A stretch of DNA of 64,000 nucleotides from the NCBI GenBank assembly GCA_038824665.1, contig JAWBBK010000005.1, forward strand, positions 1-64,000, read 5' to 3'. This DNA is from Acidilobaceae archaeon. Lineage in GTDB: Archaea > Thermoproteota > Thermoprotei_A > Sulfolobales > Acidilobaceae. This document shows, piece by piece, positions 28,835 to 50,894 of the stretch (position 1 is the first letter of the stretch; each line of letters opens with the position of its first letter). A program made the translations under genes and the position numbers. The notes beneath the pieces are model-generated. The model was not told where the DNA came from and did no database searches. It was given only the letters and a program-made list of their open reading frames with translations.

Positions 28835-29521
28835 TTGACTATAAATTATTTAAAGATTAAAGTGAGGTCAGGATCGGTGTCAATTTTGAGGATGACCAGA
28901 GAAGAAGCGAAAACAAGAACAAGAAATGAGTTGATCAAAGCTTTGATCTATATCATTCTTTATATAGTTACTGGAGCCATAATTACAGTTATCTTAGGCA
29001 TCATCAGGTCCGTCTTCAATGTAGACCTCACGGGACTCTCTCCCTATGTCAACGCCGCTCTTTTAATAATCTTCGGTTATTTCGTAATCAAAGCTATATC
29101 TAATGCCGCCTTTTACACTACGTATTCCAGCCACGAAGACCTGGCTACAGCCGCTGCTGTAAAGAACGCCGTTTTCCTCATAGGTCTAGGAGCTCTAATA
29201 GTGGCAATAGTTGGAGCTGTTGTAGGCGGAGCTACTGCTGTAGCCTTAGCTGGCTTCCTAGCTATCGTTATCGGTTACGCTACTCAACAAGTCCTGTCTC
29301 AAGTGCTAGCCGGCTTCTTCCTTATCCTGATAAGACCTTTCAAGTTGGTTACAGATAGAGTGAACGTAGTCGGCGAAGAGGGCTACATTGAAGAGGTTGG
29401 AGTGATCTACACTAAGATGAACAAAGACGATAAGACTGTAGTCCTGATCCCCAACACGTCTCTCATCGGGAACAAGATCTACATACTTACAGAAAAGGTC
29501 AAGACGGAGTCTCGATCGTGA
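28835..29521 (+). CDS. MscS-family mechanosensitive channel
   Basis: GYATQQVLSQVLAGFFL..IRPF, IPNTSL. Confidence 0.88.
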   Translation: MTINYLKIKVRSGSVSILRMTREEAKTRTRNELIKALIYIILYIVTGAIITVILGIIRSVFNVDLTGLSPYVNAALLIIFGYFVIKAISNAAFYTTYSSHEDLATAAAVKNAVFLIGLGALIVAIVGAVVGGATAVALAGFLAIVIGYATQQVLSQVLAGFFLILIRPFKLVTDRVNVVGEEGYIEEVGVIYTKMNKDDKTVVLIPNTSLIGNKIYILTEKVKTESRS

Positions 29522-30254
29522 GTCTTTCTGTTCTTTTCGTTTTATCTGTAGCTTTTTTCACTCTTTCTATATAAACTTGTATGGCTTTAGCGTTCGCTTC
29601 AACAACTCCATCAGCGCCTAAAACGCTTCTTCTTCTAAACCTTATCTCAGCTAGCCATCCAGAACTGTCAACGGAGACTACTTTATCGAGAAGCCCTGCT
29701 TTAGAAAGCCCTGCAACAGCTCTAGCTCCTACTCCAAAGAGATGAAGACCTTTAGGAAGAACTCTCACCACACTAGCTATGAAGCTCGTTCTTCTTTTGT
29801 CTCCGTCTAGTCCTCCTATTCCTCTAACTGTTGTAGAAATCTCTTCGAGCTCTTTATAGCACTTCAGATTTTTGCCTTGAACTACAGGCATAAACTCTCC
29901 TCTGTAAACTTTAGCGAACTCTCTAGTTCTCGCTAAAGTCGTGCTACAGTCTCCAGGAACGTCTGGAGCTACAACTATATCGAAGAGCTTGTTGTGTTTT
30001 AAGATCAGATCTGCGTAATCTCTTACTCCAACTTCAAGACCTAACTTAGCTAAGTGGTATGCGCCTGAATCTAGCATTACAGAAACCTCTGTTTTAGATC
30101 GCAAAGCTGAAAGCCTTTCGAGAACTACAGGCTTCATCTTTATAATAGAATAAGAGACAAGGATTCCGAAATCAGCTTCTCTCGAAGCTATCTCTATAGC
30201 TTTGATTTTAGTTATGCTGAGATCAGGCAAAACTATGTAGATACGTAAGCTCAA
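29499..30254 (-). CDS. minimal guanine-transglycosylase (TGT)-fold protein without Zn or PUA domains
   Basis: LDSGAYH, APDV, PVVQG, GIGGL, HLFGVG, SVDSS appear in TGT order. Confidence 0.75.
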   Translation of the reverse strand: MSLRIYIVLPDLSITKIKAIEIASREADFGILVSYSIIKMKPVVLERLSALRSKTEVSVMLDSGAYHLAKLGLEVGVRDYADLILKHNKLFDIVVAPDVPGDCSTTLARTREFAKVYRGEFMPVVQGKNLKCYKELEEISTTVRGIGGLDGDKRRTSFIASVVRVLPKGLHLFGVGARAVAGLSKAGLLDKVVSVDSSGWLAEIRFRRRSVLGADGVVEANAKAIQVYIERVKKATDKTKRTERLTIETPS

Positions 30255-30729
30255 GAAGGGCCCTCCTCAGCTTCTCTAAGTTCTTTTTTGATCTAAACGA
30301 AAGAGGTGACATCAAAGAAGGGCTGAGATCGGTTATAGAGACGTTGCTTCTCTTAGAGGCTTCAAGCACTGCAATCCTGTAAGCTTTGACGTTTATGTAT
30401 GTAGCTATAGCAGTATAGCGTAAAGAGAGTTCTTTGAGGTCTTTCGCTAAAGCCTCGATCAGAACTTCAAGTCTTTCTAAATCCTTAGAGTAGACTTTAT
30501 CCCAATAAGGAGCTATGTCGCACCACGAGTACTTCAACTCATCTCCGTGAAGCACAACGCCTGGCTTACATGAGTCTACAGCTCCAAGGTTTACTAAACC
30601 TGCTGAAACGAGGTCTCCTACGTAAGCTTTAACTATCTTCCATCCATCGCAAAGAGAGTAGTCTCCTAACCTTACGCACTGATTACATGGAAGCAAGAGA
30701 AGAACTCTCCTCATATCTCTACTCATCAA
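30223..30729 (-). CDS. stand-alone ArcS/DUF5591-like Cys-rich protein
   Basis: VLLLLPC...YS...GVV...YWD...Y..I..Y...S..NLEKLR follows the ArcS core-domain pattern; overlaps the TGT-like gene. Confidence 0.55.
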   Translation of the reverse strand: MMSRDMRRVLLLLPCNQCVRLGDYSLCDGWKIVKAYVGDLVSAGLVNLGAVDSCKPGVVLHGDELKYSWCDIAPYWDKVYSKDLERLEVLIEALAKDLKELSLRYTAIATYINVKAYRIAVLEASKRSNVSITDLSPSLMSPLSFRSKKNLEKLRRALLELTYLHSFA

Positions 30730-30939
30730 TTTAGTGTTATCTCAAGCACAAATAGCTGAACAGCCTTGTAATCCCAGTGAGCTAGCTTTTAGTTTCCAAC
30801 AGTTAAGTAATATCGTTGTATGCTATAACATCTATTGTTTCATACATTTATAGCTAGTTATATTTGTAAAGTAAAAACTTAGTTTTGTAACGAATGTAAC
30901 TTTATAACCTCGAGAGCTAAGAGACAACGAGGAGTTCTA

Positions 30940-32295
30940 ATGTTGTCAAAAGAACCTCTGAGAGTTCTTGTGCTAGGAGCTGGTGGAAGAGATTTTCACA
31001 ACTTCAACGTGTTTTTTAAAGATAATCCAAGCTTCAAGGTAGTCGCTTTCGCTTTAACGCAGATCCCAGGAATCGATAGATTGAAGAAGTTCCCTCCTGA
31101 GCTAGCAGGAGCTCTCTATTCTGAAGGGATCGAGATACTCTCCGCTGAGAAGCTCGAAGAGATCATCATTGAAAAGAAGATCGATGTAGTGGTGCTTGCT
31201 TTTAGCGACATAACCTACAACGAATTGGGAAGGATCGTTAGCAGAGTCTTAGCTACAGGAGCTTCGTTTATGGTGCTCGGACCTAAGCATACAGTGTTAG
31301 AGTCTAAGAAGCCAGCGATAGCCATCACGGCTACGAGAACAGGAGCAGGAAAAAGTAGCGTAGCTAGAAAGATAGCTTCTATTTTGATAAATAAAGGTTA
31401 TAAAGTAGCTCCAGTTAGACATCCTATGGTCTATAACGACTTCAAGGAAGTCTTGACGGTATCTACTGTAGAGGAGTTAGAACATATGAGATTAACTCTT
31501 GAAGAGAGAGAAGAGTTCGAACACTACATAAAGATGAAGCTGAAAGTGTACGCAGGTGTGAACTATCTAAAAATCTTAGAGTTAGCGGAAAGCGAAGCAG
31601 ACATAATCCTTTGGGATGGAGGTAACAACGACTGGCCTTTCATAAAGCCCGACTACCTAATTGTCGTAGCGGACGCCTTGAGACCTGGTCAAGAAGTCGG
31701 AAGTTATCCAGGCGAAGTCAATATTAGAATGGCTGATGCAGTGATAATTAACAAAACGGATAGAGCAAAGCTTGAAGACGTAAAGAGAATAATAGACAAC
31801 GTGAAAAAAGTAAATCAAAAAGCCAAGATATCTTTAGCGATTAGTAGAGTCTACGTAGATGACCCCAAAGAGGTCTTAGGGAAAACAGCTATAGTAGTTG
31901 AAGACGCTCCTACAGTTACACATGGAGAAGCTCCTTATGGAGCAGGTTACGTAGCGGCTTTAGAATATGGAGCACGTATAGTAGATCCTAAACCTTACGC
32001 TGTAGGCTGGATAGCTGAAGCCTATAAGAGGTATCCGCACATAGGAGCAGTAGTTCCCACATTAGGCTATACTCAAGAACAGCTGAGAGATCTTGAAGAG
32101 ACTCTCAATAGAATCCCAGCTGACGTTATAGTCTCAGGAAGTCCTCTCGACCTGTCTAAAGTGCTAAAGCTGAACAAGCCTGTGATTAGAGTACGTTATG
32201 AAGTAGAGATTATAGAGGGTCCTACCTTAGAAGAACTTGTCGAAGAGTTCTTAGAAAAGGCTTCGCCTAAGCTGAAAAGCGTCAGAACTCGATAG
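30940..32295 (+). CDS. COG2403-type P-loop ligase (arginine synthetase ArcE-like; often labelled cyclic 2,3-DPG synthetase)
   Basis: GAGGRDFHNFN, RTGAGKS, RHPM, EEREE, WDGGNND, EDAPTVTHG. Confidence 0.8.
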   Translation: MLSKEPLRVLVLGAGGRDFHNFNVFFKDNPSFKVVAFALTQIPGIDRLKKFPPELAGALYSEGIEILSAEKLEEIIIEKKIDVVVLAFSDITYNELGRIVSRVLATGASFMVLGPKHTVLESKKPAIAITATRTGAGKSSVARKIASILINKGYKVAPVRHPMVYNDFKEVLTVSTVEELEHMRLTLEEREEFEHYIKMKLKVYAGVNYLKILELAESEADIILWDGGNNDWPFIKPDYLIVVADALRPGQEVGSYPGEVNIRMADAVIINKTDRAKLEDVKRIIDNVKKVNQKAKISLAISRVYVDDPKEVLGKTAIVVEDAPTVTHGEAPYGAGYVAALEYGARIVDPKPYAVGWIAEAYKRYPHIGAVVPTLGYTQEQLRDLEETLNRIPADVIVSGSPLDLSKVLKLNKPVIRVRYEVEIIEGPTLEELVEEFLEKASPKLKSVRTR

Positions 32296-32314: not shown

Positions 32315-33652
32315 GTGAGTGAATATCGCGACTTGCTGAAAATTGCAGAAGAAGTTCTGAAAGAGACCTCTCTCTGCGACAGATGTTTTGGGAGACTTTT
32401 TGCAAAGCTAGGTCACGGTTGGAACAATAAGGTGCGAGGCGAAGCTCTCAAGAGAGTAGTGTTGATGAGAGTTCACGAGAGATTACGTCGCGGAGACGCG
32501 AGCGCTGAAAACGACCTTAGAAAGATAGCGCCGAACGTTGGAGAGATCGCTAAAGGAGTATACCTTCAGGTCTTTGGCGAAGAGCTAAAGACCAGTGAGT
32601 GCGTTATTTGTGGAAGCATCATAGAGGAGTTTTTAGAACGCGTCTCAAAAGACGTAGCGTCAGTTGTAAAAGCTCATAACGCTCCTAGCTTCTTGATCGG
32701 TGTGATCTGCGATAAAAACGTCCTAAAGAGAGAGGAGGAAATAACGAGCAAATACGGTATTGACTTCTGGGAGTCTATAAAAAGAGAGATAAAAAGAGAG
32801 ATAGGAAAAAGAGTACAACAAATGACTAGTGCTGTTCCTGATTTCAAACATCCCGCTTTGACGCTTATCGTGAAGTTTCCAGAAGGCTCTTTAGAGATCG
32901 CACCTTCAAGCATGTTAATCAAAGGAAGATATTGGAAGACAGGAAGGATGATCAGTCAGGCGTTCTGGCCAACAGTTAATGGCCCCAAATATTTCTCAAT
33001 AGAAGAAGCGGCTTCGGGAGTTCTTGCGCTGACTAGAGGCGATAGCGTTGTGGTTCACGCAAGTGGACGCGAGGACGTAGACGTCAGAGTTCTGGGTTCA
33101 GGAAGACCTCTCATAATAGAAATAAAAGCTCCTTCCGTTTGGGTCGAAGACCTAGAAGCAATTGAGAAAGCGCTCAACTCTACTGCAACAGAGGTAGTTA
33201 AATTCAAGGTGGAAGGCTTTGCTGAATCTAAAAACGTGATCAGAGTCTACAAAGAAGAACTCGCAATAAAGGGAAAAACCTATAGAGCTCTCATCTACGT
33301 AGAAGGCGGAGTTAGAGAAGAAGACATGAGAACTCTCGAGGAGAGATTCGCTAATAGGACGATATTACAGAGAACCCCTAAGAGAGTGTTGAAGCGAAAG
33401 AAAGACATGGTTAGAACGAAGCTGGTTGAGAGCGTAAAATGCAAGATCTTGACTTCAAATCTCATAGAGTGTCTCATAAGAGCTTCAGGAGGTCTCTACG
33501 TTAAAGAGTTAGTCAGCGGAGACGACGGAAGGACTACTCCAAGCTTTTCTGAAGCTCTCGGCAGAAGAGCTTTCTGCATAGAGCTTGATGTGCTAGAAGT
33601 AAGCGTTAATCCAAAGCCTCTCGAAGCTCAAGGTCTAGCTGAAAAACCTTAA
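32315..33652 (+). CDS. pus10: tRNA pseudouridine(54/55) synthase Pus10
   Basis: CDRCFGR, GREDVDVR..G.GRP, QRTPKRV, GGLYVKEL. Confidence 0.95.
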   Translation: MSEYRDLLKIAEEVLKETSLCDRCFGRLFAKLGHGWNNKVRGEALKRVVLMRVHERLRRGDASAENDLRKIAPNVGEIAKGVYLQVFGEELKTSECVICGSIIEEFLERVSKDVASVVKAHNAPSFLIGVICDKNVLKREEEITSKYGIDFWESIKREIKREIGKRVQQMTSAVPDFKHPALTLIVKFPEGSLEIAPSSMLIKGRYWKTGRMISQAFWPTVNGPKYFSIEEAASGVLALTRGDSVVVHASGREDVDVRVLGSGRPLIIEIKAPSVWVEDLEAIEKALNSTATEVVKFKVEGFAESKNVIRVYKEELAIKGKTYRALIYVEGGVREEDMRTLEERFANRTILQRTPKRVLKRKKDMVRTKLVESVKCKILTSNLIECLIRASGGLYVKELVSGDDGRTTPSFSEALGRRAFCIELDVLEVSVNPKPLEAQGLAEKP

Positions 33653-38180: not shown

Positions 38181-39056
38181 TTGAACAACGACAAACAAGT
38201 GCAGGATTTGAGCCCTTCAGTCAGGATCTCTCTTGAAAGGATAGGCTTCAAGGAGCTCAAGAGAAGAGTTAAGCTAGAGACTCCTATAGGGCTTTTGCAA
38301 CTAGACTTAACCTTAGACCTCTATATAAGCATATCTAAAGATAGAAGAGGAGCTCATCTCTCTAGAACTGCTGAAACAGCTTTAGAGGTTCTAGAGACTT
38401 CCTTCATAGCGAAAAGTGTTGAGGAACATTTAGAACTGTTGGCGCGCCATCTTCTCAAAAAGCACGAATATGCTGAACAGGTCGAGGTGAAGGCTACCTT
38501 TACGTATTACGTAGAAGTAGAGTACGGAAAGCTGAAGGGAACTGAGCCTGTAGTAGCTGAAGTAGAGATAAGCTTAGATAGAAACGGGAGGAAGAGATGG
38601 AGTGTAGCCGTTACCGTCGTTGGGCTTACAGCTTGTCCTTCTGCACAACAAGCGATAGCGACTCTTTTAAAACGAGAACCTCACGAAGTTCCTACTCATA
38701 TGCAGAAGGTTCTAGTAAAAGGAAAAGTGAGCGGAGAAGAAGGCTTTGTCAGAATCGAAAGACTTGCGAGAGCTCTTCATAAGAGTCTATCGGCTCCAGC
38801 ATTCACTTTGCTTAAAAGAGCTGATGAAGCCGAGCTGATATTGAGAGCGATCTCCAACGCTAAACTTCTCGAAGACGTTGTGAGAGACTCTATAGCTAAC
38901 ATAGCTTTAGAATTCAAAGACCTTTCGCTCGATACGCTGATCGAAGTAGAAGCGGAAAGCTTTGAAAGTATTCACCCCCATAACCTTTATGCTTATAAAA
39001 GAGTCGCTCTCAAAGAAGCTCTTGAAGCTCTAGCCTTTTCGGAAAGTCAAGGCTGA
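38181..39056 (+). CDS. mptA: GTP cyclohydrolase, FolE2/MptA family
   Basis: RGAHLSR, TACPSA, THMQ, LLKRADE, ESIHPHN. Confidence 0.88.
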   Translation: MNNDKQVQDLSPSVRISLERIGFKELKRRVKLETPIGLLQLDLTLDLYISISKDRRGAHLSRTAETALEVLETSFIAKSVEEHLELLARHLLKKHEYAEQVEVKATFTYYVEVEYGKLKGTEPVVAEVEISLDRNGRKRWSVAVTVVGLTACPSAQQAIATLLKREPHEVPTHMQKVLVKGKVSGEEGFVRIERLARALHKSLSAPAFTLLKRADEAELILRAISNAKLLEDVVRDSIANIALEFKDLSLDTLIEVEAESFESIHPHNLYAYKRVALKEALEALAFSESQG

Positions 39057-50138: not shown

Positions 50139-50894
50139 TCAGATAGGAGGAGAGAGATAGCTTGTCTTGTCTAAAAGACCTGCCTCCTTGAAAGCTTTAG
50201 CTCTGTTTCTACAACTCTCGCACTCTCCACAATGAGCTTCAAGGCTTCTGTAGCAACTCCAGGTCTCGTAGACCAGGTCTCCTATTAGTTTGTGACATAA
50301 TTTCAAGAGCTCTGACTTTCTCAGCTCTTCTCTGCTCGGACTCCAGACCTCTAAACCTCTCTCTCTTCTGAAATGACATAGTCTGAACGCGAGCTCAAGA
50401 GACTCGATACACTCAGGACTACAGTCAGGATACTTGGGCTCCCAAGTGTCCTCTTTCGGCTCGATATCGTTATACTGTCCTCCAAACACTACGTAGACCT
50501 TTTCAGATTTCTTTATAGATAGCGCATATGCTGAAGCTACAGCTAACATAACGACGTTTCTAAGAGGAACCACTACGGAGACCTCGTACTCTTCTTTTAC
50601 GCGGACCTCGTCATCAGTTAATTGAAAGCCTTTCCAGAGCTCTCTCAAAAGCTTCATATCGATAACTTTATGTTCTACGATCTCTCCCCATCCTTTCTTT
50701 ATCGCTACTTCTTTAAGCTTAGAGACAAGACCTTTAGCGATATCTATTTCCTTGAATCCCTTTTGTCCATAATTGAAAGTGATAACGTGAGCGTTACATC
50801 CTCTGCTAAGCCACAAAGCTAAGTAACATAAACTATCGGGACCGCCGCTTACAATAGCTACGACCTCACAGTCTTTTACTATCTGGGGCTTCAA
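50139..50894 (-). CDS. queC: 7-cyano-7-deazaguanine (preQ0) synthase
   Basis: SGGPDS, FNYGQ, VPLRN, YPDC, TWSCY...HCGECESC. Confidence 0.92.

Follow-up and report, generated by a model that had tools for sequence, protein, structure and literature searches.

The window analysed here is a stretch of 64,000 nucleotides (nt) from the genome of an Acidilobaceae archaeon (GCA_038824665.1, contig JAWBBK010000005.1, positions 1-64,000, forward strand), and it contains two overlapping genes on the minus strand, one for a minimal enzyme with the barrel of tRNA-guanine transglycosylases (TGT) and one for a divergent relative of DUF5591, the C1 domain of archaeosine synthase (ArcS). With a rough probability of 55%, this pair is a two-subunit system of the DpdA plus ArcS2 type, which writes and tailors a 7-deazaguanine base on DNA and is solitary in this genome, without the HerA-like arm that adjoins it in related genera. 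The genome (G000 in the survey below) is 83% complete. The features of the pair, in amino acids (aa) and open reading frames (ORFs), are as follows.

29499..30254, (-) strand: TTG-start ORF for a putative base-exchange enzyme of 251 aa, a minimal TGT/DpdA-like protein made up of the TIM barrel alone
30223..30729, (-) strand: TTG-start ORF for a divergent stand-alone DUF5591/ArcS-C1-like protein of 168 aa (probably 163-167 aa), the predicted partner of the TGT-like enzyme
30223..30266, (-) strand: 32-nt gene overlap (30223-30254) and Shine-Dalgarno-like box (30262-30266), read off the sequence
30730..30939, no strand assigned: divergent intergenic region of 210 nt, 32% G+C, with presumed promoters that are predicted only

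Two overlapping ORFs preceded by an AT-rich gap had been reported in a preliminary description of this DNA, and both observations hold: the ORFs share 32 nt, and the 210-nt stretch between the pair and the gene at 30940(+) has a G+C content of 32%, against 44% for the window. A GGAGG box is located inside the small ORF, 7 nt on the 5' side of the TTG start of the TGT-like gene, and with the overlap it suggests that translation of the two genes may be coupled. The true start of the small ORF is likely to be an ATG, at 30726 or 30714, since its homologues open with MKRVLLLL or MRRVLLLL. Neither ORF is a chance one, because homologues are many (88 for the barrel and 17 for the small protein) and E-values are very low (down to 1e-110 and 1e-82, respectively). 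Although the proteins of the two species of the genus are no more than 60% and 67% identical, neither ORF is disrupted in either species, and every invariant residue is retained.

The six TGT motifs originally noticed in the 251-aa protein were all located (LDSGAYH at position 61, APDV at 96, PVVQG at 123, GIGGL at 145, HLFGVG at 171 and SVDSS at 194), and are taken to be the counterparts of D102, D156, Q203, G230, M260 and the nucleophile D280 of Zymomonas TGT. In an alignment of 39 barrel sequences, the residues D62, S63, G64, A65, Y66, P97, D98, Q126, G145, G147, G148, L149, H171, F173, G174, S194, D196, W200, E203, R207 and R208 are invariant, so that the catalytic aspartates of TGT (D62 and D196) and its base pocket (D98, Q126 and G147-G148-L149) are conserved without exception. 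The AlphaFold2 model of the protein (pLDDT 92.1) predicts a TGT-type (beta/alpha)8 barrel, the fold that had been expected of it. In a Foldseek search of the PDB, the best match of the model is the archaeosine TGT (arcTGT) of P. horikoshii (1iq8; E-value 1.5e-8, TMq 0.71), followed by 17 entries for Z. mobilis TGT, which complete matches 1-18 (E-values of 1.5e-8 to 7e-6, TMq 0.65-0.73), and then by aldolases. At residue level the barrel was aligned to the arcTGT of the same genome and to the DpdA of the virus STSV2. With the former, hhalign gave 93.5% probability (E-value 2.4e-7) and paired DSGAY with DSGAY, PDVPG with LDIPTG, PVVQG with PVQGG and HLFGVG with HLFGAG; with the latter, the alignment runs from DSGAY through SVDS at 87.6% probability (E-value 3.5e-6).

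The barrel protein is as bare as had been claimed, with neither a zinc site nor a PUA domain: its two cysteines (103 and 132) lie at no invariant or nearly invariant column, which leaves no CxCxxC site, and in the model the chain stops after the TIM barrel and one long helix, with no Pfam domain and none of the C1-C3 or PUA domains. The protein has no matches among PDB sequences, the profile of its family found only chance matches in the PDB, and TIGR00449 scores 11.1 bits on it, against a cut-off of 47.6. None of the 39 family members, the window protein included, matches PF01702, and 11 of them are touched by the DpdA model PF23859, the best at 25.1 bits against a cut-off of 27 (E-value 1.1e-5), with no such match for the window protein; in profile space, the family is thus nearer to DpdA than to tRNA TGT. 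Phage matches of the barrel in tblastn were limited to mycobacteriophage genes annotated as queuine tRNA-ribosyltransferase, one of them called 'DpdA-like' (25% identity, E-value 2e-4). Wherever barrel homologues carry names, these are 'Acidilobaceae archaeon' or 'Desulfurococcales archaeon'. A search for barrel-containing fusions longer than 440 aa gave none, a negative of little weight. In other families of the class, ORFs of ~300-390 aa match the barrel profile weakly (E-values of 6.5e-9 to 5e-4), at loci L016 (genome G034), L021 (G061), L023 (G194), L024 (G089) and L017 (G011), and these may be further DpdA-like paralogues.

The small protein reads ..RRVLLLLPCNQCVRLGDYSLCDGW.., with cysteines at positions 15, 18, 27, 54 and 70. 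It has no match to the Pfam model of DUF5591 (PF17884), either alone or in the genome-wide scan, and none to NCBIfam. Kinship with the ArcS core and DUF5591, which the preliminary description had read from its pattern, is nevertheless upheld by profile comparison: when the small-protein family was compared by hhalign with ten canonical stand-alone DUF5591 proteins encoded in genomes of this archaeal family, the probability was 96% (E-values of 2.8e-9 and 4.6e-9) over 129-153 columns, and with STSV2 ArcS2 it was 76% (E-value 2.3e-5). In the BFVD, Foldseek matched the AlphaFold2 model (pLDDT 85.4) to an unnamed 170-aa viral protein (TMq 0.68, E-value 7e-5), to the DUF5591 protein of Vibrio phage nt-1 (TMq 0.62) and also to DUF6884 proteins. 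The small protein therefore qualifies, by sequence comparison, as a remote homologue of DUF5591/ArcS-C1. Searches of the PDB with the model found nothing below an E-value of 1e-3, and the nearest folds, lumazine synthase and SMUG1 uracil-DNA glycosylase (TMq ~0.5), were judged to show generic alpha/beta likeness; the family profile found only chance matches there. A PADLOC match to PtuA was dismissed as a 15-bit coiled-coil match. No match to the small protein was found in phages by tblastn.

The ArcS motif PC-x3-KPY-x2-S-x2-H aligns with the stretch PCNQCVRLGDYSLCDGW, in which only P14, C15 and Y24 are retained; V19 or G22 stands in the place of K, D23 in that of P, the variable C27 in that of S and the invariant W30 in that of H. 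When 1.84 billion representative proteins were searched with a profile of the small protein, 44 relatives emerged, including a 418-aa fusion and more distant proteins of 200-300 aa. PCTxxKPY persists in the distant relatives P0139 and P0142. Across this wider family C15 is present in all 35 rows that have a residue there and Y24 in 33 of 35, whereas W30, P74 and Y117 are invariant in 36 of 36 rows. C54 and C70 are invariant only within close relatives, and C18 and C27 are both cysteine in 11 of 17 close rows and both replaced in five, one row being truncated before position 18. Since only C15 is universal, a four-cysteine metal or Fe-S site is not a feature of the family, and the suggestion of such a site is weak; the related statement that a cysteine-rich motif replaces that of ArcS is right about the loss of K, P and H and about the five cysteines, but the cysteine-rich pattern is not family-wide. 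Some distant homologues bear an additional domain of ~150 aa with a weak winged-helix match; in P0114 (308 aa) and P0117 (307 aa) this cysteine-containing domain is N-terminal in one and C-terminal in the other (BLACT_WH, E-value 0.016).

The distribution of the two genes was surveyed in 67 species genomes, of which 22 are counted as pair-bearing in the denominators used here; these are kin of one family, and the counts are not independent. The barrel is present in 22 genomes and the small gene in 21, with both in 20 and adjacent in 18. The window order, small gene before TGT-like gene, is found in ten of the adjacent pairs and the reverse in eight, and both orders occur within one genus. The exceptions are two genomes with the genes on separate contigs, two with the barrel only (one of them at a contig end) and one with the small gene only. 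In the 418-aa fusion P0111, which represents a cluster of 14 members including one from an NCBI record of a metagenome-assembled genome, residues 3-155 correspond to the small domain and 161-406 to the barrel, the latter 36% identical to the window protein (hhalign, 100%). Co-occurrence, adjacency in either order and natural fusion indicate that the two genes belong together, and the conservation of the pair that had been proposed as a check is thereby confirmed. Prediction of a complex of the two proteins gave a score of 0.01, which is evidence neither for nor against binding. Within genera the pair is patchy (3 of 8, 1 of 6, 1 of 7 and 2 of 4 genomes), as is typical of accessory genes.

Of 16 loci that were fetched, seven show the pair, or in the case of G207 a barrel gene without its partner, next to genes for a ~530-aa protein and a ~740-aa HerA-like ATPase (DUF87 at 2e-16, PADLOC HerA at 1.9e-35), and the ~530-aa gene lies next to the HerA-like gene in all seven fetched loci that hold it. 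The ~530-aa gene was found in 20 of the 67 genomes, 16 of the 22 that bear the pair versus 4 of the 45 that do not. In ten genomes it shares a contig with the pair at a distance of up to ~3.5 kb, and in one more it is near the pair across a contig break. By genus, seven possess both the pair and the ~530-aa gene, three the pair only, none the ~530-aa gene only, and five neither. The arm may be convergent with the pair, divergent from it or co-directional; in G209, the pair, a CARF gene, the ~530-aa gene and the HerA-like gene form one co-directional row. The CARF-domain protein of G209 (154 aa, L039:8489-8953(-), PADLOC CARF at 8e-37), encoded between the pair and the two other genes, hints at control by cyclic oligoadenylate or at a defence island. 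The ~530-aa protein has no Pfam match even at an E-value of 10, no PADLOC match and no profile match in the PDB, and its scores against the protein atlas (0.82) are below the meaningful range.

A DpdA with a stand-alone DUF5591 protein is in print for STSV2 and nt-1, so this kind of system is already known, and the description of the pair as an undescribed system is not supported (PMC10516641). STSV2 encodes only DpdA and a C1-only ArcS ('ArcS2'), and its DNA carries dCDG (PMC10516641). Like the window pair, its genes STSV2_15 (DpdA, 291 aa) and STSV2_16 (ArcS2, 185 aa; NC_020077) overlap and encode a small PUA-less TGT-like enzyme and a stand-alone DUF5591 core, and its host is a thermoacidophilic crenarchaeon. 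The STSV2 pair is viral, whereas the window pair is chromosomal in housekeeping synteny; the viral order is DpdA then ArcS2, the reverse of the window order, although 8 of 18 adjacent relatives show the viral order; ArcS2 keeps PCx3KPYx2Sx2H (PMC10516641), of which the window protein keeps only P, C and Y; and the likeness of the two pairs is seen by profiles only, with no match by tblastn. For nt-1, co-expression of DpdA2 and ArcS in E. coli led to dPreQ0 and then, by the action of ArcS, to dG+ in plasmid DNA, and its DUF5591-only ArcS is described as 'slightly degenerated' yet active (PMC10516641). Here too a base-exchange enzyme is accompanied by a stand-alone, degenerate ArcS core, the one matched by the model of the small protein. 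In contrast to the window pair, that of nt-1 belongs to a phage of bacteria with a preQ0 pathway of its own (PMC6884629); the two pairs are distant in sequence, and the ArcS motif of the window protein is much more degenerate.

Cellular systems offer further parallels. In bacterial Dpd islands, ATPase and nuclease genes are coupled to those for a TGT paralogue, which labels self-DNA with a 7-deazaguanine, and for a further enzyme that modifies its nitrile; DpdA requires Asp95, Asp256 and the ATPase DpdB, a non-homologous partner (PMC10164549). The islands consist of DpdA/B/C and DpdD-K, whereas the tailoring partner in the window is DUF5591-like and the genes associated with the pair in relatives are those for a HerA-like ATPase and the ~530-aa protein. 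In this genome, no DpdC/DUF328 (PF03883) was found and the pair had no PADLOC match; DpdB and DpdD-K were not individually searched. The pair shares the arcTGT fold and catalytic motifs with arcTGT and, through the small protein, homology with ArcS C1, but has none of the zinc site, C1-C3 and PUA domains of arcTGT/ArcS. The BRC system, a computational proposal (NAR 2026, PMC12839542), is a HerA/FtsK-centred defence of archaea and bacteria in which a TGT homologue is predicted to mark self-DNA with 7-deazaguanine; its PglZ, DUF6079, STAND NTPase, DUF4007 and GNAT components differ from the gene set beside pairs of the window type, and the words ArcS and NurA are absent from the text of PMC12839542. 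No description of this cellular, strongly diverged branch turned up in the literature searched on DpdA, DUF5591, RaSEA, HerA and ArcS2; the supplementary DpdA/ArcS lists of PMC6884629 and PMC10516641 may hold relatives.

From fold, homology, gene linkage, fusion and context, all of them observed, we infer a substrate base, a DNA target, a chemistry of the small subunit and a role in defence. To remove guanine, the barrel would form a covalent intermediate between Asp196 and the (deoxy)ribosyl group, Asp62 serving as acid/base. It would then insert preQ0 or a closely related 7-deazaguanine, either made with the QueC-family enzyme of the cell or imported. The DUF5591-like subunit, translated from the overlapping upstream ORF, may act on the C7 substituent via the conserved Cys15, or may help the barrel to hold its substrate. 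The most likely target would be the DNA of the cell itself. The pair of related genera may serve as the marking part of a larger system, together with a HerA-like translocase and the ~530-aa partner, which is perhaps NurA-like, whereas in this genome and its sister species G190, because no HerA-like arm was found, it may be a solitary ('orphan') DNA-marking module. A more far-reaching version, which is put forward tentatively, is that the pair writes a possibly undescribed 7-deazaguanine derivative into the chromosome of hyperthermophilic archaea, as the self-label of an undescribed HerA-like/NurA-like restriction system in most related genera and in this genus as a stand-alone epigenetic or protective mark, whose writer has outlived the restriction arm. 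The derivative may be new because the ArcS motif has been rebuilt, with K, P and H lost and Cys15, Tyr24 and Trp30 kept.

If true, this would be the first 7-deazaguanine DNA modification of a cellular archaeon. Phages, archaeal viruses and bacterial Dpd islands provide the documented cases of such bases in DNA, with none for an archaeal chromosome in the literature searched. If the pair marks DNA, this chemistry extends to cellular hyperthermophilic archaea, with a very small writer of two proteins (or a single fused protein) that functions at high temperature, and the rebuilt ArcS-like motif could yield a new base. The repeated HerA-like linkage in sister genera would define an archaeal defence of the restriction-modification type, the marking arm of which can persist alone like orphan methyltransferases. 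Should the target be RNA instead, the pair would add to the archaeosine pathways of Thermoproteota, which are known only in part.

Several observations weigh against the DNA-modification reading. The pair sits in conserved housekeeping synteny near Pus10 both here and in the sister species, and G+C content is flat across the locus. The 251-aa protein itself matches neither a Pfam nor a PADLOC model, and the DpdA matches of its family all fall below the cut-off. Replacement of K, P and H in the ArcS motif makes catalysis by the small subunit uncertain. The family survey did not find the HerA-like partner gene in this genome or in G190, and the ~530-aa protein is NurA-like only as a lead, because hhalign against ten NurA proteins gave just a C-terminal local match of 54 columns at 48% probability. 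The nuclease and defence context anticipated earlier is thus borne out by the HerA-like arm of other genera, but the arm was not found here and the nuclease part is weak. Pattern scans of viral contigs with both families found no relatives, and QueD (PF01242) was not found in six genomes (G000, G190, G028, G180, G125 and G077). This genome shows no known archaeosine synthase, so that a role in tRNA would fill a gap. Finally, the genomes belong to a single family and share ancestry, which makes the instances of co-occurrence look more independent than they are.

The archaeosine genes of this genome and its relatives bear directly on the choice of target. A separate full-length arcTGT, the presence of which was to be checked, is encoded on contig 1 of this genome (512 aa, with CNCSVC). 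No DUF5591, QueF-like or Gat-QueC gene was found in the genome, and tblastn detected no homologue of RaSEA or DUF5591. Canonical DUF5591 is present in 21 of the 67 genomes, 10 of the 22 with the pair and 11 of the 45 others. Its genes, examined in nine of these 21 genomes, all lie beside a radical-SAM gene or are fused with one: the first form is a ~235-aa protein, the gene of which, in the three cases checked, overlaps an upstream radical-SAM gene of ~250 aa, and the second is a 468-494-aa fusion with the radical-SAM domain. Examples of the two forms, with the motif PCSYGKPYSQSYIH, are at L041:1384-2790(-), L043:610-2094(+), L045:1070-2499, L046:516-1939 and L047:799-2219. Both forms resemble a minimal ArcS-C1/RaSEA unit in which TGT-like, C2 and PUA domains are all missing; the small gene of the window has a TGT-like gene as its partner, not a radical-SAM RaSEA. 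A QueF-like gene is present beside QueC in all six genomes of one genus, one of them pair-bearing; in this genus (g5) QueC and a short QueF-like ORF (114-154 aa) are side by side, for example at G044:C1:934084-935137 and G086:C1:884471-885521, an arrangement that fits the QueF-L route to archaeosine. Absence of a known synthase is not special to pair-bearing genomes, because 29 of the 45 pair-less genomes likewise lack DUF5591 and QueF-like genes, including all seven QueC-holding genomes of one genus. The pair as a substitute for ArcS was rejected on its distribution, since it coexists with canonical DUF5591-radical-SAM genes in 10 of 22 genomes and with a QueF-like gene in one.

Two further genes of the window were considered for a link to preQ0 synthesis.

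50139-50894, (-) strand: QueC-family gene (Pfam 128.6 bits, above cut-off; NCBIfam 106.7 bits against a cut-off of 150.3)
38181-39056, (+) strand: GTP cyclohydrolase, MptA-type (TIGR00294, 225.5 bits, above cut-off)

Both genes had been named in the preliminary description and both are present, but they are not linked to the pair: QueC is 20 kb and the cyclohydrolase 8 kb away, each in an unrelated gene row, the cyclohydrolase is of the MptA type, and QueC is present in only eight of the 22 genomes with the pair, being absent from the other 14. FolE (PF01227) was not found in this genome. A genomic link of the pair to preQ0 synthesis was rejected, given the distance of QueC and MptA and the failure to find QueD in the six genomes.

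On the side of the divergent intergenic region the pair is faced by two genes.

30940-32295, (+) strand: 451-aa P-loop protein, cobW-like at 1.6e-5, without an NCBIfam name, divergent from the pair
32315-33652, (+) strand: archaeal tRNA pseudouridine synthase Pus10 (Pus10_C at 5e-52), divergent from the pair

The opposite flank encodes an MscS-like channel and an ABC transporter. The 19-kb neighbourhood as a whole, including the arrangement of Pus10 and the P-loop gene, is syntenic in G190, and the neighbours differ in other genera.

An RNA target is the main rival to the DNA reading and is considered unlikely. It would make the pair either a second, PUA-less transglycosylase system for tRNA or rRNA or an alternative archaeosine route where ArcS-RaSEA, QueF-like and Gat-QueC proteins are absent, in which the barrel would bind preQ0-containing RNA and the DUF5591-like subunit would amidate the nitrile. 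This would suit the presence of arcTGT and QueC in this genome and its sister, in which no DUF5591 or QueF-like gene was found, the negative tblastn for RaSEA-like and DUF5591 homologues in this genome, and the location of the pair two genes from Pus10 in conserved synteny. ArcS is itself a TGT paralogue with a C1 domain, for which split forms are reported (PMC10516641), and very small preQ0 substrates suffice for the ArcS of T. kodakarensis, ArcS being an enzyme that adds lysine to preQ0 nucleosides (PMC11298593). Against these points stand the coexistence of the pair with canonical DUF5591/radical-SAM genes or a QueF-like gene, the many pair-less genomes without either, and the coming and going of the pair within genera. 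Amidation alone would give no reason for the two transglycosylase aspartates to be kept invariant, and the lack of PUA, the affinity to DpdA in profile space and the linkage to a HerA-like ATPase also speak against an RNA target. Another view, which has a rather low probability, keeps the barrel as the sole enzyme and makes the small protein, which would have lost ArcS chemistry, a non-catalytic adaptor or substrate-binding subunit that the barrel needs much as bacterial DpdA needs DpdB, so that the base stays untailored. The loss of K, P and H from PCx3KPYx2Sx2H, the requirement of bacterial DpdA for a non-homologous partner (PMC10164549), the existence of relatives in which the small domain is joined to one with a weak likeness to winged helices and the absence of every accessory domain from the barrel are all compatible with it; but the conservation of Cys15 in 35 of 35 rows, Y24 in 33 of 35 and W30, P74 and Y117 in 36 of 36 looks like that of an active site rather than a scaffold, and the ArcS of nt-1 is active in spite of its slight degeneration (PMC10516641).

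It is improbable that the TGT-like barrel is an effector that, as a glycosylase, strips the DNA of invaders of 7-deazaguanine or other unusual bases and leaves HerA-like and NurA-like proteins to finish the task where present. The full base pocket of TGT (D98, Q126 and GGL) is invariant, which suits base insertion, and an ArcS-like partner would have no purpose without a base that carries a nitrile. In favour of an effector are the linkage to a HerA-like ATPase and the precedent of defence glycosylases directed against phage DNA with 7-deazaguanine, but the known enzymes were found by their mutual structural likeness, and the available text describes no TGT barrel for them (bioRxiv 10.1101/2025.10.29.685425). 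Least of all is the pair expected to be a decaying remnant, losing its function in this genus after loss of the HerA-like arm: the partner gene was indeed not found in G000 or G190, but both ORFs are intact in the two species despite their divergence, the invariant residues are all kept, and the window retains the overlap and the Shine-Dalgarno-like box.

Among pair-bearing genomes without QueC, G028 and G180 carry a transporter of the Vut_1/YhhQ type. Genes of this type are located near canonical DUF5591 (in G222, L051:2449-3204(+), and at G028:C5:57929-58435) or beside QueC (G125:C11:8630-9082), which suggests that 7-deazaguanine precursors are salvaged in this family. Besides an intact QueC, the sister species has a second QueC-like stretch (G190:C1:32000-32642(-)) with three stop codons (one TGA and two TAG), apparently a pseudogene.

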